A stretch of 55,782 nucleotides of DNA from a virus. Below, in pieces: positions 19,218-55,782 of this stretch. The stretch is taken from the IMG/VR virus record IMGVR_UViG_3300045988_088382. The stretch is one strand, 5' to 3'. Position numbers and translations under genes: made by a program. Below the pieces are notes generated by a model. The model had not been told where the DNA came from. It saw only the letters and a list, made by a program, of their open reading frames with translations, and made no database searches. Each line of letters begins with the position of its first letter. Positions within the stretch are counted from its first letter, which is position 1.

Positions 19218-19254
19218 GAAGGGGAAAAATGAAATCCTCGTATTCCAAAATTGA

Positions 19255-19277: not shown

Positions 19278-19302
19278 ATGCCCTCGTTATTCGCCGCCTA
19301 TT

Positions 19303-19380
19303 TGCCCGTGTAGCGGTCTTGCGCGTCCCGATGGTATCTTGGTACCACCCCGACACGCAAGGCCGCTACACGGGCATTTT
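19303..19380 (+). terminator. very long hairpin (25-bp arms, 2 mismatches) followed by TTTT
   Basis: tgcccgtgtagcggtcttgcgcgtc ...24 nt... gacacgcaaggccgctacacgggca tttt. The loop contains a KpnI-like mini-palindrome. Confidence 0.6.
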
Positions 19381-19408
19381 AGACCGTTTCACGGCGTGCC
19401 CCTGACCG

Positions 19409-19665
19409 GCAGCAGGGCTTCACCAGCTCCAGCAGCTCCAGCAGCGCCCGGAACGTCGGCAGGGGCTTCACCAGCTCCAGCAGCGCCCGGATCGTCGGCA
19501 GTGGCTCCACCAGCTCCACCAGCGCCCGGATCGTCGGCAGGGGCTCCACCAGCTCCACCAGCGCCCGGATCGTCGGCAGGGGCTACCAGGACGGCAGGGG
19601 CTTCACCAGCTCCACCAGCTCCACCGGCGCCCGGATCGTCGGCAGCGGCTTCCAGGGCGGCAGGG
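19409..19665. repeat. about 6 tandem copies of a GC-rich 39-nt unit (ggcaggggctccaccagctccaccagcgcccggatcgtc)
   Basis: Read directly. Both strands are open across it only because of the repeat. Confidence 0.85.
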
Positions 19666-19830
19666 GCTACCCGACAACGGCGCGCAACCACAGCCGCGCG
19701 GGCGCAATCGAGCACCGCCCCACGCGCGCATCTGCGCAGCTACGCGGGCACACATAGCTGTGCGAACGCATACGCGCGCAGCCGCACAAGCGATCTCACG
19801 TACAGCCGCGCTGGAGGTGTACGCGCGCAA

Positions 19831-19902
19831 CCACACAGCCGTTCGGGCGCATAGCCACGCGGCCGTTCGGGCACATAGCCACACAGCCGTTCGGACGTAT
19901 AG
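19831..19902. repeat. 3 x 24-nt tandem repeat ccacacagccgttcgggcgcatag
   Basis: Units at 19831, 19855 and 19879 with 2-4 substitutions each. Confidence 0.85.
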
Positions 19903-20113
19903 CCGCTTGATTTTTACGCCTGTCTGTAAACACCTTCGGCAGCATCGCGCGGCGCTTTCCCGGAAAGCAAGCGATAAGACCAAGCGATGGCGTGAAAACA
20001 AGCGATGACGCGATCCCCGCGCCCTCACAGGCTGTTGGTTCACTGCTCAGACAGTTTCCTGCCCGTTCTAGGCGTTTTCCTGCGCCGCGTGATATTCTTT
20101 ATCATCCTACGCG

Positions 20114-20139
20114 GCTAAACGCTCAGACGGGCGTTTAGC
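20114..20139. other. 9-bp perfect hairpin gctaaacgc-tcagacgg-gcgtttagc
   Basis: Read directly. Confidence 0.6.
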
Positions 20140-20153
20140 TACTCTCACGCGCT

Positions 20154-20297
20154 CACGCCGTGGGATTTTGAAAACCATACGCCCACGCCGTGGGATTTTG
20201 AAAATCGCGCATGCCGTGGGCTTTTGAAAACTGTACGCTCACGCCGTGGGATTTTGAAAAGCCCATCAGGCAAAATCATCCTGTGGGCTTTTGATTT
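20154..20297. repeat. 5 direct copies of CGTGGG(A/C)TTTTGA boxes (4 as cacgccgtgggattttgaaaa), 26-39-nt spacing, abutting the terS stop
   Basis: Copies start at 20154, 20184, 20210, 20240 and 20279. The last forms part of the terS terminator. Confidence 0.85.
20251..20290 (-). terminator. intrinsic terminator after terS
   Basis: Minus strand: AGCCCACAGG-atgattttg-CCTGATGGGCT followed by TTTTCAAAAT. Confidence 0.7.
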
Positions 20298-20943
20298 ATT
20301 CAATTGTGTAGTCTGTGTCAACGTCCATCTGCATAAACTCGTCTGGCTCTGGCAAATTCTTTGCGATTTCCTCCGGCGTAAGCGGTTCATTGCTGTCATC
20401 CGCGCTTGCCGAAACAACGATTTCCTGACGGTCACTCATGCCGTAATAGTTCTTAGAACGGAAGATATATGTCACCGGATTCATCTTGCCGGATTCGGTC
20501 AAAACTGCGTCTGTGGCGTGTATCATCTCTAAAGCTTTTTTAGCGATGAGTTTTGTACTTATACCCGGTAAAGGCTCATCACGGAATCCCTTATTCATTC
20601 CACTCCGCCAAGCCCTGAGCGTTTCGGACGTATACCCGCAATACAAACCAAGTTCCTCAACCGTTGGAGGGATGGCGCGATTTTGAATTTGATTGAAATA
20701 GTCATCAAGACGCTCTAGCAGCTCGGCGTTGCTCTGTACAGGCTTCATCAAAAATGCCTTCCGCAGATGGCCTATCGTATCGCCGAGAAGGTTCTTTGTC
20801 TCCGGCTTATCCAGATCCGCATAGCCTTGAGGGGCTAAGGATTCACGGGGCTTAAATTCAAACTCCGTCACCGCGTCTGGGCTTTTCAGAAAATTGCTTC
20901 CCCGATTGCTTACGCGGTTAGAGTTGTCACGCTTCGTCGCCAC
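20296..20943 (-). CDS. terS: terminase small subunit (gp3-type DNA packaging protein)
   Basis: 215 aa; GTG 7 nt after GAAGGAGGTG. Pattern PPTVEELGLYCGYTSETLRAWRSG ... NPVTYIFRSKNYYGMSD resembles the HTH plus IF.LKN..GW.D signature of small terminases. Confidence 0.7.
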   Translation of the reverse strand: MATKRDNSNRVSNRGSNFLKSPDAVTEFEFKPRESLAPQGYADLDKPETKNLLGDTIGHLRKAFLMKPVQSNAELLERLDDYFNQIQNRAIPPTVEELGLYCGYTSETLRAWRSGMNKGFRDEPLPGISTKLIAKKALEMIHATDAVLTESGKMNPVTYIFRSKNYYGMSDRQEIVVSASADDSNEPLTPEEIAKNLPEPDEFMQMDVDTDYTIE

Positions 20944-20958: not shown

Positions 20959-21321
20959 TCACACATAGAAAAAATGCAGCCCCTTGATCGCTTTACGTCC
21001 GTAACTTTGGAGCGACTTGTTGATATCACCGGGAGCGATCCCGAAAGCCTTTGAAGCCTCGGACACGCTATCGTATGTCGTATTGTTTTCCCAGCAATGC
21101 ACGGGCTTACGTCTTCCGTCTTGTCTTGGGAGGCTCTTTCGTTCCTCAAGCAGCAAATACCTTCTTTCCCGCAAATATTTTTCAAATAAATTTTCCGGGG
21201 TCATTTTGCAAACCGCCTTTCTCTTCATTTTCCGGGCGCGGCAATCCAATCCGCATCGTGTCCCGAAATGGCCGTTTTCGGGCACTTTCGAGCCTGAAAT
21301 TTTAGTTATGTTTCTATCCAT
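20959..21321 (-). CDS. NUMOD1-like HTH DNA-binding protein (start uncertain: 21321, 21228 or 21204)
   Basis: C-terminal HCWENNTTYDSVSEASKAFGIAPGDINKSLQS...GLHFFYV resembles the DNA-binding module of homing endonucleases. First gene of the terS operon. Confidence 0.5.
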   Translation of the reverse strand: MDRNITKISGSKVPENGHFGTRCGLDCRARKMKRKAVCKMTPENLFEKYLRERRYLLLEERKSLPRQDGRRKPVHCWENNTTYDSVSEASKAFGIAPGDINKSLQSYGRKAIKGLHFFYV

Positions 21322-21348: not shown

Positions 21349-21804
21349 GGTGTAGGGTGGTGTAGGGTTTACCCAAGGGGCCCTAACGCGGGGCTAGGGG
21401 CAGATGTAATTAGCTTTTAGGGTGTGCAGACCCTACACCGCCTACACCAACTTCACGCCGCTCCGTAAAAAGTTCTGTGCAGACCCTACACCGCCTACAT
21501 TTTTAGTGCATCTTACACAAAGGATTGTCTACCCGGATTGTGCATCTGGTTTTTCAAATTAACAACTGCTCCCGTGACTACCCTACACCGCCTACACCGC
21601 TACCCTACACCTTGCCTACACCTTGCCTACACCACCCTACACCACCCTACATCTTATAACAAGTGGCCTCAATCAAAAGTTTGTGCAAATGCCTACACAC
21701 CCTACACCAGCGCATATTCGCACGAAAAAGTTTGTGCAAATGCCTACACTGCCTACACCCGTTTTATCTGTAACGCATGTCATTTGGTGTAGGGTGGTGT
21801 AGGC
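21349..21804. repeat. array L1: 19 CCTACAC(C)-type boxes (15 forward, 4 inverted at the two edges) plus two aaaagtttgtgcaaatgcctacac units
   Basis: Counted by eye. The 24-nt left edge ggtgtagggtggtgtagggtttac equals the reverse complement of 44960..44983. ORF-free 540-bp gap. Confidence 0.9.
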
Positions 21805-25822: not shown

Positions 25823-26743
25823 TCATCCCTCCGTTTCATCAAAAATCCCAAGCTGCAACTCGTCTTTGCTCTCTCCGCCTTTTCCGATCCACCAGCGCAA
25901 GACCGATTCGCCGTCCGTCCAATGCCTATTGATGGGTTTTCCCGCTTTTCGCCGTGCGTCCAGCATCTCGTCAAAGGTGCGAATATAAAATGACTTGAAT
26001 TGTGGGAAAAACTCAAGCTCTCTTTGCATGCTCGCAGAGCCGCCCAGCGGGCAGGCCACGCAGCCAAGCCGTTTGAATCCGAAATCGTATAGCTCGCAAT
26101 ACGGTACGTTGTAGAGCCGTATGAACTCCCACACGTCTTCGTCCGTCCAGTCAATAATCGGATTGACAAGCGTTTCGTGTGTCCGATAGCACATCTCAAC
26201 CATTCTGCGGCTCTCGTCGTTATCGGTATTGAGTATCAGCCCGTTTTTGCTCGTTCGATTCGGCTCTGCACCGCTCAAATCCGCTACGTTGTGTAGGCTT
26301 TTGGGCACTTTTGGAATCGTCACAATCCCTTGGTTGTTTTTTCTGTTCCTGCTTTCTGCCCATCTTACGCCCGTAACCACGACGTGCCCGATTCCCTTTG
26401 GTTCTTTTAGTTCGGCGCAACAATAGCGTTGTGTCCTCAGTGGCGGGAATTGCTTTTTGACGATCAGCTCTCGCATGGTATATTCAGGCTTTTCGATTTC
26501 TGTTTTGGGGTGATTCTTCCGGATGAAGCGTACAAGCTGTGGCGGGTCAACTGTCGTCGCGTTGTAGTGAGCGTCAAACCTAACCCCTGCCATCTCGCAG
26601 AGCTTGACGACACATGAGCTGTCTTTCCCGCCGCTGTCTGCGACATAGTACCCCTCTTCCGGCTCAAACGCCCGCAGCCGGTCTATTGCCGTCTGCACCT
26701 TGTCCCGCTTTTGCCCGAAAAGGTCGTACTCAACTAACGCCAT
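25823..26743 (-). CDS. phosphoadenosine phosphosulfate (PAPS) reductase family protein
   Basis: 306 aa. PP-loop-like YYVADSGGKDSS near the N-terminus. RBS GGAGGGG. Confidence 0.75.
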   Translation of the reverse strand: MALVEYDLFGQKRDKVQTAIDRLRAFEPEEGYYVADSGGKDSSCVVKLCEMAGVRFDAHYNATTVDPPQLVRFIRKNHPKTEIEKPEYTMRELIVKKQFPPLRTQRYCCAELKEPKGIGHVVVTGVRWAESRNRKNNQGIVTIPKVPKSLHNVADLSGAEPNRTSKNGLILNTDNDESRRMVEMCYRTHETLVNPIIDWTDEDVWEFIRLYNVPYCELYDFGFKRLGCVACPLGGSASMQRELEFFPQFKSFYIRTFDEMLDARRKAGKPINRHWTDGESVLRWWIGKGGESKDELQLGIFDETEG

Positions 26744-28187
26744 CCGCTATCCCCTCCATCACATACAGTACACATGGTAAAGCCATGCCGTTACCCCACA
26801 TCTCGTATCTCGCGCTGTCGCTTCCCGACACGCCGTCCTCCCACCAATCGGGGAAGCCTTGCAGCCGGCAGCACTCAAGCGGCGTAAGCCGGCGGACAAA
26901 GTAGCGCCGCGCCTTTTTCAGCCAACAGGCGATGTCGGGCACCGTGTTGCTTCCGCTTGGAGCGGCTTTGAGCGTCGGCGATACCGTTTCCGAGTAGCCG
27001 ATTCCCCCGGCCTTTGCGCCCTGTCCGCCCATAAATGCGCAGATCATCTGTTGATCGTGTGCGCATGTCAGCGTTCCCGCCGTATCGGTCATGTAAATCT
27101 GGTTGAGCTGGCCGTTTCCGACGGCCAATGCCGTGTAGTCTGTAATACGGTTCTCGTGGTCGCCGGTCAGCGTCGGCACGATTTTTCCGTCTCCGTTGCC
27201 TCGCGCGTCATAAACGACGGGATTCTGGTAGTTCAGGCTATACCCGCCGTTTTCTTTGGCTTGCAGCGTCCCGCTGATTTCTTCGCCCAACCGCATGTTT
27301 CGGCAATCAACTGAGTAAGCTACCACGTTCCCGCCTTGATTGCACTCCGGCGAACCGGTGAACGTGTCGAGCGTCCGCGCCACATTGCGCTCGCGGAAAC
27401 AGCTATCCGGCGTTCGGCTTTTCATGCTGTTGCTTGTCGCTCCCGTTATGTCAAAAACTCGATAGTCTCTACCAGCGCTTCCCACAGCATCAGCGGTAGC
27501 TTCTTTCCCCGCTTCTCGGCTCTGCGCAAAATTCCCTCGCAAGCCCTCGCGCTTAAAAAGTATTTCTCCGGCGCGTCCACCTCTAAGATCGCAGACAAGG
27601 AAGATTCGGCGGCGTCTTTGGGGGACTCCCCAGTATTGGGCGTCCAGCACTCGCCAGGCAATCGAATAGCCCCCTCCCACGATGTAGCCGGCGTTTCGCC
27701 AAGCAAGTCGGTCTGTTCTGCCTTTTCTCGCAGGTTCAGGAACATTATCTCCGTCGCCACCGGCGGCTTCGACGAACGCACGCAGGACGGCGAGGAAGTC
27801 TCGTCCCTGATTGCTTGATAGCGCGCCCGGCACGTTTTCCCAGACGCCGTATCTTGGGTATTTTCCATGTGTAGCCTCCCGCATTTCCATGATGATCCGG
27901 ATCGCTTCAAAGAAAAGGCTGCTCCGTTTTCCGGCAATCAAGCCTTTTTGCGTTCCGGCGACGCTCAAATCCTGACAAGGCGAGCCGAATGTAACGATAT
28001 CCACCGGCTCGATCTCCGCGCCGTTGATCTTCGTGATGTCACCGAGATGTTTCATTTCGGGGAAGTTATTTTTCGTCACCCGGATGGGGTACGGCTCGAT
28101 CTCGCTTGCCCAGACGGGCGTAATGCCGCACATCGTTGCCGCCAGCGGGCAAGTGCCAGAGCCGTCAAACAGGCTGCCCAGCGTCAT
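26730..28187 (-). CDS. dcm: DNA (cytosine-5)-methyltransferase
   Basis: 485 aa; motif I LFDGSG, motif IV GSPCQDLS, motif VI ENVPG. Confidence 0.9.
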   Translation of the reverse strand: MTLGSLFDGSGTCPLAATMCGITPVWASEIEPYPIRVTKNNFPEMKHLGDITKINGAEIEPVDIVTFGSPCQDLSVAGTQKGLIAGKRSSLFFEAIRIIMEMREATHGKYPRYGVWENVPGALSSNQGRDFLAVLRAFVEAAGGDGDNVPEPARKGRTDRLAWRNAGYIVGGGYSIAWRVLDAQYWGVPQRRRRIFLVCDLRGGRAGEILFKREGLRGNFAQSREAGKEATADAVGSAGRDYRVFDITGATSNSMKSRTPDSCFRERNVARTLDTFTGSPECNQGGNVVAYSVDCRNMRLGEEISGTLQAKENGGYSLNYQNPVVYDARGNGDGKIVPTLTGDHENRITDYTALAVGNGQLNQIYMTDTAGTLTCAHDQQMICAFMGGQGAKAGGIGYSETVSPTLKAAPSGSNTVPDIACWLKKARRYFVRRLTPLECCRLQGFPDWWEDGVSGSDSARYEMWGNGMALPCVLYVMEGIADGVS

Positions 28188-28385: not shown

Positions 28386-28687
28386 TTCCCATGCCTCCAT
28401 TCACGCCCTCGGTTGATCTCCATCTTTGCCCGCACCGCCTTGTCAATGTCGATGCCCAGATACCCAGCGGCAGATAGCGCCGTGATGATAACGTCCGCAA
28501 GTTCCTCGGTGTAATGTTCCGGCTCGTGCACAGCCTTGATGGTTTCCGTCAATTCGTCGCTGATGAGCCGCGAACAGTAAAGCCTTTTTATTACATCGCC
28601 CGCTTCGCCGATTTCAAGGCAATTCCACAGCCCATGTTTCACCGCGTCATCGTAGATTTCGTTGCGCAATTCGTTCAAATCGTTCAT
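28382..28687 (-). CDS. mazG: MazG-like nucleotide pyrophosphohydrolase
   Basis: 101 aa; ELADVIITALSAAGYLGIDIDKAVRAKMEINRGR is typical of the small phage MazG family. Confidence 0.75.
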   Translation of the reverse strand: MNDLNELRNEIYDDAVKHGLWNCLEIGEAGDVIKRLYCSRLISDELTETIKAVHEPEHYTEELADVIITALSAAGYLGIDIDKAVRAKMEINRGREWRHGK

Positions 28688-29112
28688 TTCGTGCCTCCTC
28701 TAAAAATAACCACCATCGACGGAAAAGGCGCGGACGCTTTCGCGTTGCCAAACTTGATCCGCCCTTTCAAAAACCTAATTTCCGCCTGATGATAAATGTA
28801 GTCGTGAAAGGCTCGGGTGTCTGTTCTCGCAGGAATGAGCATCACCACCAGCGCACCTTCCTCAGCCTCGTCATGCGCTTTCTTGATCCACTTCGGGAGT
28901 TCTCGCCCGTAGGGCGGATTGCAAAACACCCTTTTACCCCCCCAATTTTGGGAAAGGCCATTCTCCGCCTTGGTGAAGTGTTCCGCGCATTTCGCGTTCT
29001 CGTGTGTGCAGCACGGGTCAAGGTTGAAATGGAACTCCGCGTCCAGCTCGTCAAAAAGAGCCTGCGGCGTTGCCCACTCGACGGTTGCGCTTGAAAATAA
29101 ACAGCTATTCAT
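28684..29112 (-). CDS. dam: DNA N6-adenine methyltransferase (phage Dam family)
   Basis: 142 aa; VEWATPQALFDELD, FNLDPC, catalytic NPPY, then PARTDT and GRIKF. Confidence 0.85.
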   Translation of the reverse strand: MNSCLFSSATVEWATPQALFDELDAEFHFNLDPCCTHENAKCAEHFTKAENGLSQNWGGKRVFCNPPYGRELPKWIKKAHDEAEEGALVVMLIPARTDTRAFHDYIYHQAEIRFLKGRIKFGNAKASAPFPSMVVIFRGGTK

Positions 29113-31808: not shown

Positions 31809-32061
31809 TCGGTTTTACCTTCTTAGCCCTTGCGGGTCTCTGTAGTAGCTTAACAACAATGCGCAGCGAGCCCTTGTTCCGGGAAGTCTGCGTGTGTACC
31901 GCGATGTTCTGACCTTCCCACTTGGTCACTCGACTGTACATGTTCTTTTCCTGCCCGTACTTTTTCCCCAAGCAGACCATCCGAAGCGCATAGTAGAGCG
32001 CTAAGTGATCGGGGATTCCGTCATCAATGCGTAAAATGATGTGTCGCCTGTCATCCCTCAT
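31780..32061 (-). CDS. hypothetical protein (93 aa)
   Basis: ATG at 32061, 5 nt after GGGAGGA. Confidence 0.55.
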   Translation of the reverse strand: MRDDRRHIILRIDDGIPDHLALYYALRMVCLGKKYGQEKNMYSRVTKWEGQNIAVHTQTSRNKGSLRIVVKLLQRPARAKKVKPNETDEQQED

Positions 32062-33412
32062 TGCTATCCTCCCTAAGTATGGCTTTTACCGCTTCCATCA
32101 GCGCATCTTGTCGCAAGTCCTTCTGAGCTAAAATCCGCATAACACGCTCGTCTACCGTGCCTTTGGCCACGATGTGGTGAATGACTACCGCGTTTTTTTG
32201 ACCCTGCCGGTGCAATCTTGCATTGGCTTGCTGGTATTTTTCCAGCGACCACGTTAAACTGTACCAGACAAGGATGTGCCCGCCCGTTTGAAGGTTCAGG
32301 CCGTGGCCGGCGCTGTCCGGGTGACACAGGAGTAGCGGTATCTTTCCGGCGTTCCAGTCTCTCACGTCATTTTCGCCTTTGCCTATCATCCGAGCTTGCG
32401 GGAACTCTTGCATGATTCGCGTGGCTTCATGCCGGAAACCGTAATAGCACAGTACAGGGTTGCCGTTAGCGGCCTCTATAACGTCGTGTAGCGCATCCAA
32501 TTTCTCGCGGTGGATTTCATGGTAAACGCCGTTCTCGTCGTACACAGAGCCGCCAGAAAGCTGTAAGAGCTTGTTACACACGGATGCCGCGTTAAATGCT
32601 GTAATCTCAGTGTCCTTGAGCGGCAGTACCATTTCGCGTTCCATTTGCCGATATGCGTTTTTTGCATCCGACGGAAGCTCTACGCTAATCACATTGTCGA
32701 TTCGTTCCGGCATTTTTAGGTAGTCTCTGGTTTTCATGCTGACAACCAGACCGGCAAGCCGCTTATAAATCGCGTCTTCCGCTCCGGGAAGCAGTTTCCA
32801 TTCAAAAATCACGTTCCCGTTACGCTTTCCCGGCTTAAAATACGTGTCGCGGTAGACTGATAAGGTCTTGCCCAAGGCAGTCCCCTGATCCATCAGGTAC
32901 ATCTGCGGCCACAGGTCAAGCAGACCATTAGGTGCCGGCGTTCCCGTTAAGCCTACAATGCGCTCAATGCAAGGCCGAACTTTTTTCAGCGCCTTAAAAC
33001 GTTCCGCGGATCGGCTTTTGAAGCTGGATAACTCGTCGATCACGACCATATCAAAAGGCCACCGCTTCCCGCACTCTGTCACTAGCCAAGGTATGTTTTC
33101 TCGGTTGATAACGTATACGTCCGCATCAGCCAGCAGCGCACCCCTGCGCTGCTTAGCCGTGCCGAGGATTTTAGAGAATCGGAGGAATTGAGTGTGATCC
33201 CACTTCTCCGCTTCCGCATCCCATACCGTTTGTGCTACCCTTAATGGGGCAATCACCAGCACCTTTGATATATCAAAGCCGATCATATCCGAGATCGCAG
33301 TCAATGTGACGGATGTTTTGCCCAAGCCCATTTCCAGAAAAAGCGCTATCTGCGGCGTTTGCTTGATCGCCTCGATGCAGAATTGCTGATAATCGTGGGG
33401 CTTATACTGCAA
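32051..33412 (-). CDS. SNF2-family helicase
   Basis: 453 aa; TTG start 7 nt after GAGGTG. Motif I LEMGLGKT, motif II DELS, C-terminal helicase motifs (HRQGQ). Confidence 0.85.
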   Translation of the reverse strand: MQYKPHDYQQFCIEAIKQTPQIALFLEMGLGKTSVTLTAISDMIGFDISKVLVIAPLRVAQTVWDAEAEKWDHTQFLRFSKILGTAKQRRGALLADADVYVINRENIPWLVTECGKRWPFDMVVIDELSSFKSRSAERFKALKKVRPCIERIVGLTGTPAPNGLLDLWPQMYLMDQGTALGKTLSVYRDTYFKPGKRNGNVIFEWKLLPGAEDAIYKRLAGLVVSMKTRDYLKMPERIDNVISVELPSDAKNAYRQMEREMVLPLKDTEITAFNAASVCNKLLQLSGGSVYDENGVYHEIHREKLDALHDVIEAANGNPVLCYYGFRHEATRIMQEFPQARMIGKGENDVRDWNAGKIPLLLCHPDSAGHGLNLQTGGHILVWYSLTWSLEKYQQANARLHRQGQKNAVVIHHIVAKGTVDERVMRILAQKDLRQDALMEAVKAILREDSNEG

Positions 33413-35135: not shown

Positions 35136-37097
35136 TTAGTCCTTCATGTAATATGGCGTAATGTAGCCCGCGCCCTTGAGCGGCAGCCCCGGTGCCCATT
35201 CAATCGGTTCCGACATGCAGGCATACATATATTGCAAGGCTTCCTCAGCCTCGTTCTCGGGAACTTCCACGACCATTTCATCGTGGATGTGCATCACGAT
35301 ATCCGGGTATTTCTCCGCCACACGCAACATTGAAACGATGAGACAGTCTCTAGCCACGGCCTGAACCACGTTCTCAAACAGCTTGCCGCCCCACGTTTCC
35401 GTGAGCTGCTCGGTGCGCTTATAAAAGGAACTGTAGCCGACCGATTCTTTACCAAAGCGGTTCGTCGTCATGCACGGCTTGTAATAACGGATACACCGCC
35501 CGGACGGTAGCCGAATATGCAGTAGCCGTCCAGTTCTGAACACCTCCAGCCCATATGGCAGAAAGCCTTGTTCCCGATTGACTACTGAATCCCGGACAAC
35601 TTCTTCGAGCTTATACCAGTAGTTCACGATATGCGGGTTAGCTTCACGCCACGATTTCACGATTTGCGGAAGTTCATCTTCCTTCAAGCCCATCTTCAAG
35701 GCGCCCATTTTCAGCATAGCCCCTTCGGTGCCGCCATAGCCGAGCGCGAGAACAGCGATTTTACCCTTCTGTCTCAGCTCGGCGTTCGGGCCATGCTTTC
35801 CGACGGGTACGCCAAACATCTGACTCGCCGTCTCACAGTAAATATCCTTGCCCTGCTTGAAGGAATCAACCACCCAGTCTTCACCGGCCAACCATGCGGA
35901 CACTCGCGCCTCGATTGCGGAAAAGTCCGCAACGGCGAATACGTGTCCGGGTTTGGCGATAAACGCCGTCCTGACGAGCTGAGACAGCGTGTCCGTTACG
36001 TCGCCATACATGGCTTCTACCACGTCTCTATCGCCCGTCAACACCGCGTTTCGCGCCGTGTCAAGGTCTTCAAAATGGTTCTTCGTAAGGTTCTGTAACT
36101 GTACGCCGCGCCCGGCAAAGCGCCCCGTGCGTCCTGCGCCGTAAAACTGGAACAGCCCCCGGCAGCGGTTATCCCTGCACATGTACCGCTCCATCGCGTC
36201 ATACTTAGCTACCGAGCTTTTGCCAAGCTCTTTACGGATTTTCAGTACTTCCAGTCTGTCACCCGTTTCGGTTGACAGCATCTCTTTGACAACTTCTTTG
36301 TCAAGAGAGCCGGTCACGCCGAACCATGACTTTAACTGCGCCATGCTGTTCGGGTTCGCAAGCCCCGTCAGCGCTTTCATTTTGGCTGTCAGCAGCTTTG
36401 AATGTTCCTCGGCAATCGAGATCGACGCCTCGGCCAGCGGTCTGTCACAGAGTACGCCGCGTCGGTTGATTCGGTAGTCCAGACACCACGCCTCATGCTC
36501 GTTGGCATCTGGCTCATAGGCTTCAAGCCTTTTGCGGATTGCACGCTCTGTCACAACGTCCTGCCGGTTGTACTCGATAAACGTAGCCCATTTATCTGGC
36601 GCATCGCTCGGCATGTTCCGCGTTCTGCCGCCATTAGACTGTGTAGGCTTACACGGCACACAGAAGTACCGAATAAGCTCTTTACCGCGCCTGTCCTTTT
36701 GTGCGTCCTGCGGTAAGTCCAGCGCTTTTCCTGCGCCGCCCAACGACATCGGCAGTCCACAAGTCGCCGCCGTAATCATCGTGTCCGACCACTGTTCCGG
36801 GATCATCTCTTGACCTAGCCAGTGTGTAAAACAGGTCATCTCAAAAGCGGCATTCCACGCCGTCTTTTTAATCGTCGCGTCGAGCAGCCATTCCGTGAAC
36901 TGCCGCTTAATCTGAGCGATATCCGTTACCGGGTCTGTCAGGTCAATGACTTCCACAGGGTCATCATCAAACGCATACCCGATCAGCAGATTCTCAAAAG
37001 AGCTGTCCTCCGCGTATCTGTCAACACCGCATTTGCCGATATCGACCTCGCTATAGGTTTCAAGGTCGATTGAGAGACAACGGGTCATTTCATTCAC
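35136..37097 (-). CDS. family A DNA polymerase with 3'-5' exonuclease domain
   Basis: 653 aa. Exo I motif SIDLETYS. Polymerase motifs including DFSAIEARV and HDE in the C-terminal half. Confidence 0.9.
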   Translation of the reverse strand: MNEMTRCLSIDLETYSEVDIGKCGVDRYAEDSSFENLLIGYAFDDDPVEVIDLTDPVTDIAQIKRQFTEWLLDATIKKTAWNAAFEMTCFTHWLGQEMIPEQWSDTMITAATCGLPMSLGGAGKALDLPQDAQKDRRGKELIRYFCVPCKPTQSNGGRTRNMPSDAPDKWATFIEYNRQDVVTERAIRKRLEAYEPDANEHEAWCLDYRINRRGVLCDRPLAEASISIAEEHSKLLTAKMKALTGLANPNSMAQLKSWFGVTGSLDKEVVKEMLSTETGDRLEVLKIRKELGKSSVAKYDAMERYMCRDNRCRGLFQFYGAGRTGRFAGRGVQLQNLTKNHFEDLDTARNAVLTGDRDVVEAMYGDVTDTLSQLVRTAFIAKPGHVFAVADFSAIEARVSAWLAGEDWVVDSFKQGKDIYCETASQMFGVPVGKHGPNAELRQKGKIAVLALGYGGTEGAMLKMGALKMGLKEDELPQIVKSWREANPHIVNYWYKLEEVVRDSVVNREQGFLPYGLEVFRTGRLLHIRLPSGRCIRYYKPCMTTNRFGKESVGYSSFYKRTEQLTETWGGKLFENVVQAVARDCLIVSMLRVAEKYPDIVMHIHDEMVVEVPENEAEEALQYMYACMSEPIEWAPGLPLKGAGYITPYYMKD

Positions 37098-37147: not shown

Positions 37148-37714
37148 TTACAGCTCAAACTCTTCGTCTGCCGCGTCATCGGAGAAACCGTCATCAAAGT
37201 CGCCGGCCGAGCAGCCACCGCCAATCGCCTGGCCATAGCCAAAGGTCTGAACACCGTTAAGCCCGCAGGCAATGCCCTTATTGCCGGAAACGTTATAGAC
37301 GTACAGGCCGACGTTTACGCGGCCATAGCAGCCCGGATAAACGGACAGCTCGTCGGTTACGGGGTTTCGCTGACCGTCCACAACAATCGGCTTGTTCTTG
37401 CTGGACATGTTCAGCACGATGCAGCCCTTGCACTCGTCGCCATAAGCGCCGCCCTTTGGCTTGCGCCCGTCGCCGTCATGGAATGGCTTCTGCACCTCGT
37501 CATAGTTCAGATTGTAGAACGCCTGACCCTTGCCCTTGTTCTCTTCGTAGATTTCCTTGCAGGCCGCAGACAGCTTGTCGAGGGTCGCTTTGTCGCTCTT
37601 CGGGAGAAGCGCGGTCATCGAATACTTAGGCTCCGCGCCTTCGGCGGAAGCGCGCGGCTTAAAAACATTGGGGTACGAGAACCGAACTTTGCCGGTGTTG
37701 AACTTGGTAGCCAT
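37148..37714 (-). CDS. DUF2815 ssDNA-binding-like protein
   Basis: 188 aa; GKVRFSYPNVFKP; acidic tail DDGFSDDAADEEFEL; RBS AAGGAGGA. Confidence 0.75.
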   Translation of the reverse strand: MATKFNTGKVRFSYPNVFKPRASAEGAEPKYSMTALLPKSDKATLDKLSAACKEIYEENKGKGQAFYNLNYDEVQKPFHDGDGRKPKGGAYGDECKGCIVLNMSSKNKPIVVDGQRNPVTDELSVYPGCYGRVNVGLYVYNVSGNKGIACGLNGVQTFGYGQAIGGGCSAGDFDDGFSDDAADEEFEL

Positions 37715-37728: not shown

Positions 37729-38862
37729 TTAGTCGTTAAACATTGTTTCTGCTACGCTTACGGCTTGCCGCTTATCGTCAGCCATAACCAGCGTGAGCTT
37801 TCCTTCCGGCTTGACGATCAGATCGCCCAGCCGTTCCGCGAGCTGTTTTTTGCCCACGATGTCTTCAAGATCAGTCAGGCTTTTCAGTCTGTAGATCGAA
37901 GTACCATAATCCTCTTCCAGCAGCGCTTCTGCCTTTGTTTCGTCCGCGATCTTCCGAATCGACCGCCCACGTACCAGCTTCATACCGGGGTATTCATACC
38001 CGCTGATCGCTCTGCGTGTCATAAAGTCTTTCACGTCATTGACCCAGTTTGTCAGGCGCTCCGCTTTCGGGTAGATGTCCGCAAGCTGCGCATCGGTCAG
38101 CAATTCGGGTTCCTTGAACTCGTACTGCATCAGCTCCGTTGCATACCGCATCCGTTCCGGGCACTGGAAGCGCGCCTTACAATACCGGCACTGTTTTTCG
38201 CCCGGTACGGCCTCGCCAGCGCCCTTTAGCGCCATCTCAGCGCGTGGCTTGACATATTCCTCAGCCCAGCGCAAAAGCGTGTCTATGGTCAAATCCTCGC
38301 TCGTGATACCGTCTGCTCGTGGCTGGATGATGTACAGGTGCAGATTCTTAAACGTGTACAGCGCGCTGAACGCCTCATACACACCGAGCGCGTACAGTCT
38401 GAGCTGCGGGTTGTCTAGCGCTTCAACTACGTGTCGGCCATACTTAAAGTCGATCACATAACATTCACCGTCTGCGATAATCACGGTGTCCGTTGTGCCG
38501 TGCCCGCCGGGAACCCAGCGGTCATAGCTGACGCTCATTTCAGACGCAAGCATCGCGTCCGGGCAAGCGCGCCGCGCGGTTGCCAACAGCTCTTCCACTG
38601 TGTCACAGTAGCTATCTGTGTGATCTTCCATCGCCTTGTTATAAAGCGGGTCTTTCTTCTGAGCGGCGGTAGCCATTCCTCTACGCTTTCCGGCAATGAT
38701 CCGATTCAGCTTAACCTCGACAAGCGCATGCGCCAAGGTGCCTTCTTCGGCATTGACGGAAGTTTCGTCGGGAAGGTCCGCCTCGCGCATGACCGAAGGC
38801 GTACACAATAGCCAGCGATGCGCGCTTGAGGGGCCAAGGTTTGAATGTTTCTTAGGTGGCAT
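37729..38862 (-). CDS. DUF2800 PD-(D/E)xK (Cas4-like) nuclease
   Basis: 377 aa; LGPSSAHRWLLCTPS; C-terminal Cys cluster CRYCKARFQC. Confidence 0.75.
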   Translation of the reverse strand: MPPKKHSNLGPSSAHRWLLCTPSVMREADLPDETSVNAEEGTLAHALVEVKLNRIIAGKRRGMATAAQKKDPLYNKAMEDHTDSYCDTVEELLATARRACPDAMLASEMSVSYDRWVPGGHGTTDTVIIADGECYVIDFKYGRHVVEALDNPQLRLYALGVYEAFSALYTFKNLHLYIIQPRADGITSEDLTIDTLLRWAEEYVKPRAEMALKGAGEAVPGEKQCRYCKARFQCPERMRYATELMQYEFKEPELLTDAQLADIYPKAERLTNWVNDVKDFMTRRAISGYEYPGMKLVRGRSIRKIADETKAEALLEEDYGTSIYRLKSLTDLEDIVGKKQLAERLGDLIVKPEGKLTLVMADDKRQAVSVAETMFND

Positions 38863-40879: not shown

Positions 40880-41340
40880 TTTGCCGCTGCCCTGCGGCGC
40901 CATGCAATGCCACAACCTCGCTGAGCTAAACTCTGCAATGCCCTCGCAAAGCCGGGCTGCACCGTGCCGTCGCCGTGCATGACTAAACTGTACTTCGCCG
41001 TTGCAGTGCTTAGATGGGCTATACGATGCCCGCGTATTACTGTGCATTGCCCTTACTTTGTGTAGCAGCACTTTGCCCTTGCTGAGCTAAACTCTGCGTT
41101 GCCCTTGCAATACAAAGATGCGCTAGGCCATGCCCTTGCCGAGCTATGCAGTGCAGCGCCCTTGCATGGCTATGCTCTGCAATGCCCTTGCTGAGCTAAA
41201 CTCTGCGTTGCCGTCGCAGAACGTGTCATCGCCATGCCTTTACTACGCATTGTTAGGCAATGCAATGCCCGAGCAACGCGGTGCTTTACCTCTGCTTAGC
41301 TGTGCAGTGCTTTGCCGTAGCAGAGCTTGACTTTTGCGAG
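40880..41340. repeat. degenerate tandem array with about a 27-nt period, core TGCCCTTGC
   Basis: Three near-identical copies of gctgagctaaactctgc at 40920, 41081 and 41190 (spacings 161 and 109 nt, that is 6 x and 4 x about 27). Many weaker units lie between them. No ORF covers the array. Confidence 0.8.
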
Positions 41341-41410
41341 ACGGGGCTCCGCCCTCGCGTCGGAACGCCGTCGCGTTACTTCGCTGCGCCGTCACTCTGC
41401 CGGGCAGGGA

Positions 41411-42383: not shown

Positions 42384-42539
42384 TTAGCTCTCCTTCTTTT
42401 TCTCGGGGCTGTCCATGCTAGTCTTCAACTGGCCAAACAACACGCCCGCCGCAAAAGCGTTCTGAATGGCTTCGGGGAAACTGACGAAAGTCTTGAGAAT
42501 ATCGACTTTCTCGTTTGCGACAACAGTATTTGCCTCCAC
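42384..42539 (-). CDS. small protein (51 aa), first gene of the leftward early operon
   Basis: GTG at 42539, 8 nt after GGAGGTG and 39 nt downstream of a consensus promoter. Not in the ORF track. Confidence 0.5.
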   Translation of the reverse strand: MEANTVVANEKVDILKTFVSFPEAIQNAFAAGVLFGQLKTSMDSPEKKKES

Positions 42540-42577
42540 AGTTGCGTCACCTCCGTTCTTTTTGCGCCTGTGAGTGC

Positions 42578-42606
42578 ATTATAGCTTCCTTTTCTGCGAT
42601 TGTCAA
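42578..42606 (-). promoter_or_regulatory. consensus promoter (leftward early)
   Basis: Minus strand TTGACA-17 nt-TATAAT. Confidence 0.8.
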
Positions 42607-42649
42607 TACATTCGGTTTAAATTTTTGCATTTACAAGTGCATATCACGA

Positions 42650-42678
42650 TTTACATTTTTACAAGTCAGTGATATAAT
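42650..42678 (+). promoter_or_regulatory. promoter of XRE regulator 1 (rightward)
   Basis: TTTACA-17 nt-TATAAT with an extended -10 TG. TTACAAGT-type repeats lie around it. Confidence 0.75.
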
Positions 42679-42709
42679 GGATTCGGAAACACAAAAGGAG
42701 GTGACCATA

Positions 42710-43096
42710 ATGACAATAGGCGAGCGAATCAGACAAGTACGCAAAGAGGCTGGCAGAAAAATAAGTCAAGCAGATTTTGCAGCTTCGCTCGGGCTGACAC
42801 GCCCACAGCTCATGACATATGAGACTGGACGAGTTGTTCCCCAGCGCAGCGTGCTGATGCTGATCAGCCAGCAATACAGCATCCGGATCGAGTGGCTGGA
42901 AACCGGCGAAGAGCCAATGCGACTTCCTCCGAGCGAGGATGACGAGATCGTTGACGAGGTTCTGGCGGGCTCAAACGAGTTTGTTAAAGCCGTCATACGC
43001 GGCATCGCCAAGACCCCCGGCGGCTGGGAGATGATGCGTGAGGTTTTTAACGCCATACAAGCCGAGCTGGACAAGCAAAAGAAGCCGAGCGATTAA
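42710..43096 (+). CDS. XRE-family HTH regulator 1 (candidate CI-like repressor)
   Basis: ATG at 42710 after AAAGGAGGTG; 128 aa; IGERIRQVRKEAGRKISQADFAASLGLTRPQLMTYETG. Confidence 0.8.
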   Translation: MTIGERIRQVRKEAGRKISQADFAASLGLTRPQLMTYETGRVVPQRSVLMLISQQYSIRIEWLETGEEPMRLPPSEDDEIVDEVLAGSNEFVKAVIRGIAKTPGGWEMMREVFNAIQAELDKQKKPSD

Positions 43097-43121
43097 TCGC
43101 CCGGCTTTCCTTTTGCATTTT

Positions 43122-43262
43122 TTAAGTATATTGCCTCTTTTCCGTCTGCGCCGAATATGCGCGTTCAAGGATTTTCCAGACGCGCTGAATAACAGCGTCG
43201 TCCTCCACTTTATCCAGCAGGCTCAAAATACAATGGATCATAACTTCACGCGGATATTTCAT
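43122..43262 (-). CDS. small hypothetical protein (46 aa)
   Basis: MKYPREVMIHCILSLLDKVEDDAVIQRVWKILERAY...; ATG 9 nt after GAGGAGG. Not in the ORF track. Confidence 0.45.
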   Translation of the reverse strand: MKYPREVMIHCILSLLDKVEDDAVIQRVWKILERAYSAQTEKRQYT

Positions 43263-43433
43263 GCAATACCGCCTCCTCTGCTACTATGATACCCACATCG
43301 CAGACAAGATATACAGAAAAATAACGTCGAATCAAGAAAATCGTTCGCTGTATTTCTCAGTTTTGCTCTTCACACTTCGCTGATTCGTCAACTAGTTTTG
43401 GGAAATAAAATTCGCATTTTGCTAATTTCCCCG

Positions 43434-43462
43434 TTGATTTCGCGACTAATCAATGGTATCAT
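43434..43462 (+). promoter_or_regulatory. promoter of XRE regulator 2
   Basis: TTGATT-17 nt-TATCAT with an extended -10 TG. Confidence 0.65.
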
Positions 43463-43488
43463 ATGGGTAGAGAAAAGAGGTGATCTTT

Positions 43489-43857
43489 ATGACATTCGGT
43501 GAACGGCTTATCGAACGAAGAGGCGAAAAAGGCTTTAATCAAAAGGAATTTGCGGCGGCTTTGGGGGTAACTCCGACTAGGCTAAACTATTGGGAAAAGA
43601 ATAAGAGAGAACCCGATGTTGAAATGCTAAAGAAGATAGCATCTATCCTTGAAGTAAGCACCGACGAGCTGATCGGCTTGCCAAGCCGGGACGCAGATCC
43701 CCAAACCAAAGAAGAACTGAAAGAAGAATTTGCGGAGATGGCCTTAAAGTTCCGCAAAGCTGGCGTAAGCAAAAAAAAGTTCATCCTGCAAATCATAGAA
43801 ATGCCGGATGAACTGTTCGATGAATTAGCCGCTTATTTTCAAGGCGGTCTCAAGTGA
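43489..43857 (+). CDS. XRE-family HTH regulator 2
   Basis: ATG at 43489; 122 aa; FGERLIERRGEKGFNQKEFAAALGVTPTRLNYWEKNK. Confidence 0.8.
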   Translation: MTFGERLIERRGEKGFNQKEFAAALGVTPTRLNYWEKNKREPDVEMLKKIASILEVSTDELIGLPSRDADPQTKEELKEEFAEMALKFRKAGVSKKKFILQIIEMPDELFDELAAYFQGGLK

Positions 43858-44050
43858 CATTGGCGTGCCTGTGGGTCTCTGCTTCGTAAAGAAGCATCGC
43901 CTGTGCAGCGCCAAGCAGGCAGTAAATGTTTTCTCCGTCGATTAGCATTTCGGCAATCGCGGAGATTTCCTTTCTTTCCCGATCGAATTCAACGGGAATG
44001 GTTTTCCGTTCCGGGTACATGGGTTTGTCTTTTAAGAAGTTCTCTTTCAT
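43850..44050 (-). CDS. hypothetical protein (66 aa), convergent with regulator 2 and divergent from regulator 3
   Basis: ATG at 44050 after TAAAGGAGAG. 8-nt tail-to-tail overlap with 43489..43857. Confidence 0.55.
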   Translation of the reverse strand: MKENFLKDKPMYPERKTIPVEFDRERKEISAIAEMLIDGENIYCLLGAAQAMLLYEAETHRHANVT

Positions 44051-44096
44051 AGCCAATCTCTCCTTTATCTTAGTATAGTATAGATACACGGCAGGC

Positions 44097-44105
44097 ATTT
44101 TAGCA
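44097..44105 (-). promoter_or_regulatory. extended -10 element TGcTAAAAT (leftward)
   Basis: The reverse complement of attttagca; 47 nt upstream of the ATG at 44050. Confidence 0.4.
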
Positions 44106-44115
44106 CCTACTTTTG

Positions 44116-44124
44116 TGTTAAAAT
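44116..44124 (+). promoter_or_regulatory. extended -10 element TGtTAAAAT (rightward, for regulator 3)
   Basis: Read directly; 31 nt upstream of the ATG at 44155. Confidence 0.45.
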
Positions 44125-44154
44125 GTGTTCAGAAATACAAAGGAGGTATTACAT

Positions 44155-44544
44155 ATGGCCGATATCGGAACGAACATCGCGAACGCAAGGAAAAAAGCAG
44201 GGATGACTCAAGAAGATTTGGCCTTAAAGGTTGGGTATAAAACAAGGTCATCTATCAATAAAATCGAAATGGGAAAACGCGACCTGCCGCAAAGGAAAAT
44301 CGCGGAGATCGCCTACGCTCTTGGCGTGTCCCCTGCGTCCCTTTTAGAAAGTCCCGATGCTGAACAGCAAGAAGCCCCCGCTTCGAGTAAAGCGGAGGCG
44401 CTTGATTCATTCGAGTCGGTCAAGGCCGCACTCATGCGGGTCATCGACGAGCGGACAGGCGGAAGGCCGCTGACCGTTCAGGAGCGAACGGTCATTGAGT
44501 CTGCGTTCAAGCTGCTGTCCACTATGTTCGACGATCCAGAGTGA
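44155..44544 (+). CDS. XRE-family HTH regulator 3
   Basis: ATG at 44155 after AAAGGAGGT; 129 aa; IGTNIANARKKAGMTQEDLALKVGYKTRSSINKIEMGK. Confidence 0.8.
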   Translation: MADIGTNIANARKKAGMTQEDLALKVGYKTRSSINKIEMGKRDLPQRKIAEIAYALGVSPASLLESPDAEQQEAPASSKAEALDSFESVKAALMRVIDERTGGRPLTVQERTVIESAFKLLSTMFDDPE

Positions 44545-44885: not shown

Positions 44886-45123
44886 GGTGTAGGGTGTGTA
44901 GGGTTTACACTATAATACTCTAAGGTGCGCGTGGGGGCGCGGGTGTAGGGATTAATTATGTAAACCCTACACCACCCTACACCAGAGGCTAAAATCGCCG
45001 ATTTTCACCGCGTAAAAAGTTCGTGCAGACCCTACACCGCCTACACCCGTAAAAAGTTTGTGCAAATGCCTACACTCCCTACACCCGTAAAAAGTTTGTG
45101 CAAATGCCTACACTCCCTACACC
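44886..45123. repeat. array L2: 11 CCTACAC(C)-type boxes (3 inverted, 8 forward), a 24-bp inverted repeat and a 2 x 37-nt tandem repeat, abutting int
   Basis: The inverted repeat 44886..44909 / 44959..44983 flanks 49 nt. The tandem cgtaaaaagtttgtgcaaatgcctacactccctacac lies at 45048..45084 and 45085..45121. Paralogous to L1 at 21349..21804. Confidence 0.9.
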
Positions 45124-45175: not shown

Positions 45176-46348
45176 ATGCCCGAGAGGAAAAAGATGTCTG
45201 AAAAGACCGATAAGCGGTATCGCGCGAAGGTCACTGTCCCCGGCATTGACAAGCCCGTTTACATCAGCGCGAAGACCCGCCGGGAGCTCGAGCAAAAGAA
45301 AAAGGACGTACTGGATGAATACGTCCACGGTGTTAAGGTGCAGGATAAGCCGTTTGTCGATATGATCATCGAGTGGTTCACCGTGGTTAAAAAGCCTAAG
45401 ATCAAGCGCAACTCGACGCTTAATAGCTGGCGCTCTACGATCAACTGCCACGTTCTGCCCTGCTTCTCTGACCGCAAGCTGACCAGCGCTGTCACGCGCC
45501 AAGATCTCCAAGCCTGCCTTGACAAGCTCGCGGGTTTCTCGGCGTCCATAATTACCGCAGCCTATTCCGCGCTAAAACAGACCTGTCAATACGCAATCGC
45601 CGAAGGTATTATCCTCCGCGATCCCTCTATTCTGCTGTCTAAACCCTCCACGCCTGCGGCCAAGTCGAGGGACTATCTGACGCAGGATCAGGAACGCGCG
45701 CTCCTGAAAGAAGCGGAATCCTCGGAATACGGCCTGCTGATCTATCTGCTCTACTACACCGGCTGTCGAAGAGGCGAAGCGCTCGGCTTGATGTGGAAGG
45801 ACGTCAACTGGGAGAAGAAGACAATCCGCATTTGTCGGGCGCTGGATGCGACGCTACCAAAGGATTCGCCTGATCGGCTTGCGCATCAGAAGAATAAGGC
45901 CGCTGACCGTGTTGTGCCCGTTCCTGACGCGCTCCTGGCCGTTCTGCGCGCCGAGCGCGGCCTACCTGACCATTATGTGCTGTCCAATGCCAGCGCGCCT
46001 GTAAGCGCCTCCAGCGCCATCACGCGCTGGAATGCGATGATGCTTGACTGCGGCTACGCCCGGAAGCGTGCTGATAACACGCCGAAGGACGGAATCAGAA
46101 CGCACGTGGATGTCGATATTACGCCGCACTGGCTGCGCCACCACTATATAACATCCTGCGTCATGGCAGGCTTGCGCCCGGAGGTTACGATGAATATTGT
46201 AGGTCATTCCGAGTATCAAACGACGCTGGGCATTTATACGCACCTCATGCATAATGACGGCTGGAATCCGACGCTCCTTAGCGACGCGATTAAAAACGAG
46301 GTTGCCGAAAGGTTGCCAGATTCCGCAAAGTTCAAGCTGATTTTCTAA
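45176..46348 (+). CDS. int: tyrosine integrase
   Basis: ATG at 45176 after AGGAGGA; 390 aa. C-terminal catalytic region with RRGEAL..., HWLRHHY and GHSEYQTTLGIYTH (R..HxxR..Y). The N-terminal KRYRAKVTVPG... resembles an arm-binding domain. Confidence 0.9.
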   Translation: MPERKKMSEKTDKRYRAKVTVPGIDKPVYISAKTRRELEQKKKDVLDEYVHGVKVQDKPFVDMIIEWFTVVKKPKIKRNSTLNSWRSTINCHVLPCFSDRKLTSAVTRQDLQACLDKLAGFSASIITAAYSALKQTCQYAIAEGIILRDPSILLSKPSTPAAKSRDYLTQDQERALLKEAESSEYGLLIYLLYYTGCRRGEALGLMWKDVNWEKKTIRICRALDATLPKDSPDRLAHQKNKAADRVVPVPDALLAVLRAERGLPDHYVLSNASAPVSASSAITRWNAMMLDCGYARKRADNTPKDGIRTHVDVDITPHWLRHHYITSCVMAGLRPEVTMNIVGHSEYQTTLGIYTHLMHNDGWNPTLLSDAIKNEVAERLPDSAKFKLIF

Positions 46349-46528
46349 TAATATCTAGAAAAATTGCGATGCGGATGTCTATCTAGAACAAATACGAACA
46401 GGGTTACACCCTGTTACAGCGTTGTGCAGTTTTTCCTTGTAATGCCTAGAAAAAAGTGTCATAGAGTGTAATCTTCTGAATCCTGTTTTAGTTGCCAAAA
46501 AGTTGCCGAAGGTTGCCAAAAGGTTGCC
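46301..46528. repeat. six GTTGCC boxes in two helically phased clusters (candidate Int/accessory sites, attP region)
   Basis: GTTGCC at 46301 and 46312 (inside the int 3' end), and at 46491, 46502, 46512 and 46523 (spacings 11, 10, 11). CTAGAA x3 and the small hairpin cagggt-tac-accctg lie between them. Confidence 0.6.
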
Positions 46529-46530
46529 GG

Positions 46531-46570
46531 GAAAAAGGGCATTGCGCGTATGCAATGCCCTTGAATTTTT
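46531..46570 (-). terminator. bidirectional intrinsic terminator between int and the accessory cassette
   Basis: gggcattgc-gcgtat-gcaatgccc flanked by gaaaaa (a T-run on the minus strand) and ttgaattttt. Confidence 0.75.
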
Positions 46571-55590: not shown

Positions 55591-55782
55591 TTAAGCATAC
55601 ACAATCTCGCTCATTTCGAGGATGCATTGCAGCAGGGTTTCGTTCTGGTTTTCAAGCGTCTTGATGCGTTCTTCCTGCGTCGGCTTCGGTTCTCCCGGTT
55701 CCGGCACTTCCGGCTCGACGTACACGCTGCCGTCGTCGGAGAGCTGCACCGCGTTGTCAAGGGTGCGGTAAACGGTCGTGTA
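55591..55782 (-). CDS. C-terminal part of the junction-spanning ORF (same gene as 1..217)
   Basis: The frame is continuous with 1..217 once the 55-bp overlap is collapsed (354 nt in total). It ends ...TQEERIKTLENQNETLLQCILEMSEIVYA with TAA at 55591. Confidence 0.6.
   Translation of the reverse strand, partial: YTTVYRTLDNAVQLSDDGSVYVEPEVPEPGEPKPTQEERIKTLENQNETLLQCILEMSEIVYA
55728..55782. repeat. terminal direct repeat copy 2 (identical to 1..55)
   Basis: Exact 55/55 identity. Confidence 0.95.

Follow-up and report, generated by a model that had tools for sequence, protein, structure and literature searches.

The stretch of DNA analysed here, which we call the window, is the 55,782-nt IMG/VR virus record IMGVR_UViG_3300045988_088382. 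Its element of interest is an array of CCTACAC-type boxes, L2, located just upstream of a tyrosine integrase gene (int) in a 630-nt non-coding stretch that follows three XRE-type regulator genes. A paralogous array, L1, lies 23 kb away from L2 in the non-coding gap that separates the early gene block from the first late genes, where it precedes the late operon of a 120-aa NUMOD1-like open reading frame (ORF; 20959-21321) and terS. Both ends of the window carry the same 55-nt direct repeat (1-55 = 55728-55782), indicating that the assembly closes into a circle of about 55,727 bp and that the record is not a prophage with host flanks. The gene repertoire is that of a temperate, siphophage-like tailed phage, and the host of this uncultured gut lineage probably belongs to the Clostridia. 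The window contains 30 copies of CCTACAC, where 2.95 would be expected (the highest count in 100 shuffles was 7), and the only copies outside the two arrays are two strays at 26291 and 36641. A first-pass annotation had read the boxes of L2 as arm-type sites of the integrase (Int), with attP at L2, or otherwise as an unknown control element shared by int and the late operon.

The eleven boxes that had been counted in L2 are indeed present; they span 44887-45122, and eight of them are on the plus strand, the other three (44887, 44896 and 44943) on the minus strand. Boxes are mostly arranged as head-to-tail pairs with 9-10 nt spacing. The inverted repeat described at the left of the array was also recovered, with a left arm of 24 nt (GGTGTAGGGTGTGTAGGGTTTACA, 44886-44909), a right arm of 25 nt (44959-44983, whose reverse complement is GGTGTAGGGTGGTGTAGGGTTTACA), a single indel between the arms and 49 nt enclosed; the reverse complement of the right arm matches the left edge of L1 (21349-21372) exactly over 24 nt, as had been noticed. 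Within this region lies an origin-like core of inverted box pairs (Table 1) around a 61-nt centre, which holds an additional GGTGTAGG box at 44942-44949. This centre is 56% AT vs 46% for the genome, with edges of 80-87% AT and a GC-rich middle. The tandem next to int had been described as two perfect 37-mers. A perfect pair does exist (45048-45085 and 45086-45123), but the 37-mers as quoted differ, the unit is 38 nt long, and a third, imperfect copy occupies 45010-45047 (TRF period 38, 3.1 copies). Each unit is a composite of (C)GTAAAAAGTTYGTGCARAYS and two head-to-tail CCTACAC(C) boxes, and contains GTGCARA, a degenerate box in reversed orientation. The terminator-like matches obtained in the scan of L1 and L2 are GTGCAGA/CCTACAC mini-hairpins of these units, and the promoter scan of both arrays found no convincing sigma-70 promoter within either. 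The int ATG at 45176, with an AAGGAGG ribosome-binding site at 45160, is 52 nt from the last unit.

L1 is the larger array, with 17 boxes in 21350-21803, or 19 when CCTACAT variants are included. Its left core, a paralogue of the L2 core, has a 63-nt centre, and both cores present at least two boxes per side of the centre in opposed orientations. Among five IMG/VR relatives with Int 93-95% identical to that of the window, L2 is almost invariant, and L1 is kept in the relatives that cover it (L139, L140, L179 and L192). The conserved L2-int module starts at about 44728, and the XRE block upstream of it is mosaic among close relatives.

The same boxes were found in contigs that are otherwise unrelated. 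In a scan of IMG/VR, a loose box pattern of 15 specified bases gave mostly chance single matches among those listed, and a stricter three-box pattern was used; besides the close relatives, at least 15 array-bearing contigs without blastn similarity to the window were obtained in this way. They share one layout, consisting of 2-4 GTGTAGG, a centre of 50-110 nt that is often AT-rich, and 2-3 CCTACAC. A DUF5906/D5-type superfamily 3 (SF3) helicase is encoded at 10 of 15 array loci vs 6 of the 160 other loci from the scans (Fisher P 3.6e-9), and all six helicase-bearing loci of the second group also have partial arrays. An eleventh array locus (L118) encodes a DnaG+DUF927 primase-helicase instead, according to Pfam. 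Helicases were counted with a seed hidden Markov model made from Pfam-defined regions; jackhmmer on a small local set missed divergent DUF5906 helicases. With the window helicase as query, phmmer matched proteins of L201, L088 and L038 (E 7e-37 to 2.5e-28), and Pfam recognised DUF5906 in L119, L057, L008, L092 and L050. The array starts 0-30 nt past the helicase stop in L038, L088, L119, L057 and L201, and in one family the array is further downstream, 2.1-2.7 kb from the helicase. When window proteins were compared with the array loci, none was common to more loci than the primase-helicase, and the NUMOD1-like ORF, Int, TerS and Bro-N had no homologues among the array-bearing contigs. The exact GTGTAGG is found again in siphophage-like genomes of the gut, in contigs that are very AT-rich, such as L057 and L092 with their DUF5906 helicases, and in the virophage-like L204 (matches to the Sputnik major capsid protein and V18/19). 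Two or three inverted arrays per contig were seen in L204 (4050-4158 and 7723-7841), L057 (962-1247, 7219-7341 and 9161-9297) and L092 (3511-3909), with near-identical copies on either side of a few genes in L204 and L057.

A complementary line of evidence comes from homologues of the window helicase chosen by protein similarity rather than by motif. Five such loci were examined, with 34-54% identity in the helicase/C-terminal region, and in all five the stop codon is directly followed by boxes of 8-9 nt in inverted pairs, with an AT-rich centre between them. The box itself differs from one locus to another: GGTTAGGGC in L287 (34% identity to the window helicase), AGTGAAGCT (AGTGAAG(C/T)T) in L289 (54%), AGTGACGA in L290 (49%), GGTGGAGGCT (GGTGGA(G/A)GCT) in L291 (45%), and GTGMAGGTC, that is GTG(C/A)AGGTC, in L292 (35%). 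Five lineage-specific boxes in one architecture are the signature expected of an initiator and its cognate iterons. Brevibacterium phage LuckyBarnes encodes a full-length homologue of the helicase (25% identical) and has no comparable array downstream of it.

The protein encoded in the window agrees with such a role. Pfam, with support from PHROGs, gives the domain order as an N-terminal primase region, D5_N, a DUF5906 SF3 ATPase and a Pox_D5-type C-terminal region, and its homologues are labelled 'P4 family phage/plasmid primase' in their sources. A sequence search of the Protein Data Bank (PDB) retrieved PriRep of the Staphylococcus aureus pathogenicity island (SaPI) SaPI5 (7OLA, E 1e-9). 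An AlphaFold2 model of the ATPase and C-terminal domain (mean predicted confidence, pLDDT, 91.9) was matched by Foldseek to the PrimPol of African swine fever virus (ASFV), to 7OLA and to E5 of monkeypox virus. The last ~100 residues of the model form a helix-strand-helix-helix-hairpin arrangement (pLDDT ~90) and are predicted to be a winged helix. Searched in isolation, this domain had as its best structural neighbours the DNA-binding domain of RFX, the C-terminal domain of the ASFV protein and the origin-binding domain of P4 (1KA8), each at E >0.1; a sequence search of the same domain against the PDB gave nothing meaningful, and similarity to the P4 origin-binding domain was undetectable.

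We consider, with a probability of roughly 75%, that the boxes of L2 and L1 are iterons of the phage's own P4/D5-family primase-helicase. The best reading of the two arrays is that they would be of the SaPI-ori or P4 ori-crr type, with the origin duplicated and moved away from the helicase gene. They belong in this reading to a known class of element, the SF3 primase-helicase iteron origins, and the unusual part is the two-copy, gene-distal layout. The iteron reading also accounts for the second copy, L1, which the arm-site proposal leaves unexplained. With less assurance, we lean towards L2 itself firing as a replication origin. The motif and its architecture, its association with this helicase family across genomes, the covariation of boxes with helicase lineages and the modelled helicase fold are what the analysis shows; we infer in addition a scheme of physical binding, origin firing and a division of labour between L1 and L2, with a possible effect on int and late transcription. 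The C-terminal winged helix of the helicase would bind the octamer GGTGTAGG/CCTACACC, helicase rings would assemble on the opposed box pairs of the L2 and L1 cores, and the AT-rich edges of the centre would melt; the N-terminal primase domain would then prime, and the phage family A polymerase would extend. The surplus direct repeats, meaning the three 38-nt units by int together with the composite units and seven phased boxes of L1, may act as auxiliary loading, enhancer or control sites, as do P4 crr or plasmid control iterons, and they may incidentally occlude the upstream regions of int and of the late operon. A bolder extension, which we hold to be doubtful, is that the P4/D5 family shares an ancient GTGnAGG iteron code, recognised by the C-terminal winged helix, and that the duplicated and moved arrays bracket the early/replication region here and couple helicase loading to int and late-operon control in an SV40-like manner.

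Several observations weigh against the iteron assignment. The identical GTGTAGG serves helicases with C-terminal domains that are barely or undetectably similar, closer homologues use other boxes, and no recognition code is apparent between C-terminal domains and boxes. Taken by itself, the C-terminal domain has weak structural matches, with no Foldseek match at E <= 1e-3. The arrays are not beside the helicase gene, L1 being 7.3 kb downstream and L2 13.2 kb upstream of it; after its stop codon, the next gene follows at a distance of just 15 nt. The L2 centre is only partly AT-rich (56%), with a GC-rich middle, and that of L1 is at the genome average (46% AT). Furthermore, no helicase was seen in the contig stretches examined at array loci L142, L145, L171 and L204.

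Some of these points would suit a different role for the same protein, in which the helicase binds the boxes and one or both arrays no longer fire, serving instead in copy control or handcuffing, or as replication-coupled switches of int and the late genes, with the true origin elsewhere. SV40 large T antigen, which binds at the origin and control region, offers an analogy. The displacement and duplication of the arrays, the many direct repeats beyond the inverted pairs (three 38-nt units, seven phased boxes) and the L1 centre that is not AT-rich would all fit. However, the genome has no other box cluster that could be the origin, just the two strays, and both arrays retain the inverted-pair core of the helicase-adjacent origins, so that we regard this possibility as unlikely. 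A similarly low probability is given to the idea that the boxes are operators of a dedicated non-helicase transcription factor that would co-regulate int and the late operon, as a repressor or a late activator. Each array occupies a long non-coding region that directly precedes a transcription unit, and L1 has no sigma-70-like promoter, so an activator-dependent promoter is conceivable there. The candidates for such a factor would be the NUMOD1-like ORF, an XRE protein and the Bro-N protein. Nevertheless, L001-L004, L125 and L129 have the XRE genes replaced and keep L2 unchanged; the window has only replication proteins in common with the unrelated array contigs, and no small DNA-binding protein; and the unrelated arrays usually sit at helicase 3' ends and not at int or late promoters. 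XRE/CI-type operators as such were also considered and rejected, with helix-turn-helix genes swapped among relatives against a constant L2 and with boxes that are asymmetric head-to-tail pairs. We also consider it very improbable that the arrays serve in partition, as a centromere-like element, or in packaging, as a cos/pac recognition element, or that they are a selfish repeat family or a miniature inverted-repeat transposable element. Clustered short direct repeats are a trait of parC/parS-like sites, and L1 is upstream of terS; against this, no ParA/ParM/TubZ-type gene occurs among the annotated ORFs, L2 is distant from the packaging genes, the array contigs share helicases with the window and not terminases or partition genes, and the arrays lack target-site duplications or an association with a transposase.

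The position of L2 next to the start of int, and its short boxes in both orientations about a spacer, as often seen at attP arms, are what made arm-type sites of a tyrosine integrase attractive. We examined the homologues P0002 (57% identity), P0006 (42%) and P0009 (42%) at loci L130, L131 and L132, in which the N-terminal domain of Int is conserved. Their genomes show early genes, a cI-like gene, int and then a convergent DUF7841/lysis/tail block, and the spacer upstream of int is short, with 218, 9 and 58 nt. The comparison of int-upstream regions that the first-pass annotation had proposed turned out contrary to its arm-site reading, as no CCTACAC array was present at the Int homologue loci L130-L137. 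A different repeat behaves as expected of Int sites. Six GTTGCC boxes in one orientation flank the end of int in the window, two of them (46301 and 46312, spanning 46301-46318) inside the int 3' end and four at 46491-46528 with a period of ~11 (Poisson P 3e-8 for the clustering). L130 has 2+4 of these boxes, as in the window, and L131 has 2+2; in L132, where the Int N-terminal domain is most divergent, they become ATTGCC/TTTGCC. Because these boxes are conserved and vary with the Int N-terminus, it is the GTTGCC-type repeat that tracks Int, and the CCTACACC box does not, on the sequences compared. Within the coding sequence of int, the pair at the 3' end encodes EVAERLP.

Since the window is a closed circle, attP is expected intact within it, and it probably lies downstream of int, in 46301-46528. 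The ~170 nt between the two GTTGCC clusters hold an 8-3-8 palindrome, AACAGGGT-TAC-ACCCTGTT (46397-46415), which is a mere candidate for the attP core and is degraded in relatives; a bidirectional terminator hairpin (46533-46562) follows the four-box cluster. In one relative, L005 (IMGVR_UViG_3300029702_000167, 5085-15082), homology to the window ends 25-35 nt past the int stop (~46375-46385) and is followed by a type I restriction-modification operon (hsdR/S/M); the int-proximal GTTGCC pair is retained, and no four-box cluster occurs in the following 10 kb. This break, which falls between the GTTGCC arms, resembles an attR junction, and it may alternatively be a cargo swap. By contrast, L2 is unsplit in 10 relatives. 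The search for attL and attR that had been proposed thus yielded this one junction-like break and neither attB nor attL. A genome scan with the HsdR that flanks the break in L005 did not recover attB, its homologues at <=73% identity being in Clostridia metagenome-assembled genomes of which none had a matching flank. The Int scan of GTDB genomes found no relative, the scan of IMG/VR with the GTTGCC P' arm gave phage-form contigs only and no attL, the int region had no blastn match among INPHARED phages, and the DUF7841 protein encoded next to attP had no record in an exact-protein look-up. Unrelated box-bearing phages, moreover, have no homologous int in the stretches examined. We therefore regard Int arm sites at L2 as very improbable. 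The fallback of the first-pass annotation fared better: an element that is not of Int and occurs at two genome sites is retained, it is no longer without a counterpart, as it fits the architecture of SF3 primase-helicase iteron origins, and for a control element in the sense of a primarily transcriptional role no evidence was found. Sites of Cox/Apl-like recombination directionality factors and of serine recombinases were also considered and rejected.

The coordinates of the arrays and of the annotated genes are collected in Table 1.

Table 1. Box arrays and principal genes of the 55,782-nt window
Feature	Position	Strand	Remarks
L2 origin-like core	44886-44983		GGTGTAGG pair 44886-44903, facing CCCTACACC pair 44965-44983
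L2, three tandem 38-nt composite units	45010-45123	plus
L1 left origin-like core	21349-21448		GGTGTAGG pair 21349-21367, facing CCCTACACC/CCTACACC pair 21431-21448
L1, one composite unit	21464-21500
L1, seven helically phased boxes	21582-21652	plus	spacings 9, 13, 11, 11, 10, 10
L1, two composite units	21672-21760
L1, terminal inverted pair	21786-21804
Packaging/head/tail genes	0.2-21 kb	minus
Portal	13330-14778	minus
TerL	14879-16537	minus
TerS	20296-20943	minus
Early/replication block	22-42 kb	minus	also methyltransferases and Bro-N antirepressor
P4/D5-family primase-helicase, 839 aa	29128-31647	minus
SNF2 helicase	32051-33412		replication module
Family A DNA polymerase	35136-37097	minus	same replication module as primase-helicase
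Gp2.5-like single-stranded DNA-binding protein	37148-37714		replication module
DUF2800 nuclease	37729-38862		replication module
Three tandem XRE-type helix-turn-helix genes	42515-44544	plus	low-GC stretch
Tyrosine integrase	45176-46348	plus	Pfam Phage_integrase 7.7e-18, phrog_1 5e-56

Other features of the window were also recorded. An insertion-like block between terL and terS (16610-20290) contains a small serine recombinase gene (16610-17368, minus strand, phrog_95), plus-strand ORFs (17780-19217) and Pro/Ala-rich tandem repeats of 39 nt and 66 nt (19426-19668). Directly downstream of terS, a tandem repeat of ~28-30 nt, CACGCCGTGGGATTTTGAAAA..., is present in four copies (20150-20260) and could be a packaging-related site. 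A further non-coding region of ~430 nt (40981-41410) carries degenerate 26-nt repeats, GCCCTTGCTGAGCTAAACTCTGCA (TRF 41073-41212), and the contigs of several relatives stop or diverge near it, probably through assembly breakage at the repeat. In the early block, a PAPS-reductase-like gene (25823-26743) adjoins a C5 cytosine methyltransferase gene (26730-28187), and a second methyltransferase fragment (28684-29112) is directly downstream of the primase-helicase gene. An Rfam scan of the whole window gave no family match.

These results correct the genome map, in which attP would be placed downstream of int and the conspicuous arrays would most likely be the replication origin or origins. They also yield a prediction for the origin of a gut phage lineage that can be checked with a single purified protein and two fragments of DNA. 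As a rule for annotation, 8-9-nt GTGnAGG-like boxes in inverted pairs, with a short, often AT-rich centre between them and a P4/D5-family primase-helicase gene beside them, could mark origins in many metagenomic phages. Additionally, the two-array layout raises a mechanistic question, namely whether the second array is a P4 crr-like enhancer, a second origin or a regulatory site.

Among the closest known systems are those of staphylococcal islands. In SaPIs, the C-terminal winged helices of Rep/PriRep bind iterons of 5-6 nt, and the origins, a short way downstream of rep, comprise 6-12 iterons; at least two of these lie on each side of an AT-rich centre, in opposed orientation (PMC9371898). 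The L2 core agrees closely with this description. SaPI1, SaPIbov1 and SaPI5 resemble the window in having an SF3 initiator helicase (primase-fused in SaPI5) with a C-terminal winged helix, and in their short iterons, at least two per side of the centre and opposed; the window helicase is a homologue of PriRep5 7OLA both in sequence and in structure. Unlike in SaPIs, the iterons of the window would be 8-mers (GGTGTAGG) and not 5-6-mers, and the arrays are two, 23 kb apart, neither directly downstream of the helicase, with extra 38-nt composite tandem units and a centre that is only partly AT-rich. Unlike SaPI, a satellite, the window is a temperate siphophage-like genome of 55.7 kb that encodes a family A polymerase of its own.

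Phage P4 provides the precedent for two arrays. The P4 alpha protein binds the octamer TGTTCACC (reverse complement GGTGAACA) in two clusters, ori and crr, ~4.5 kb apart. The work on ori/crr and alpha is reportedly that of Flensburg and Calendar in 1987, Ziegelin et al. in 1993 and 1995 and Yeo et al. in 2002, the last with PDB entry 1KA8; a literature search for the box octamers and P4 crr returned primer noise only. The window and P4 encode primase-helicases of the same 'P4 family', and that of P4 is likewise said to end in a winged-helix origin-binding domain. The reported octamer, as GGTGAACA, is similar to GGTGTAGG and to the homologues' GTGnAGG-like boxes, and the two separate octamer clusters described for P4, kilobases apart, find their counterpart in the 17-19 boxes of L1 and the 11 of L2. 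Unlike in P4, the clusters of the window are separated by 23 kb instead of ~4.5 kb, and between the origin-binding domains the sequence similarity is undetectable and the structural match weak.

In the staphylococcal cassette chromosome SCCmec, the D5-family protein Cch2 binds direct repeats downstream of cch2, with three 5-nt iterons (PMC7581432). This system is like the window in its D5-family self-loading helicase and in its short direct repeats, which are intergenic and beside recombinase genes; the Cch2 site differs in having neither paired inverted clusters nor a second array. Lambda-type attP arm sites, which are also short boxes by int, fit the GTTGCC boxes of 46301-46528 and not L2. 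Unlike such arms, the CCTACACC boxes are unsplit in the putative junction contig L005 and occur in contexts without int.

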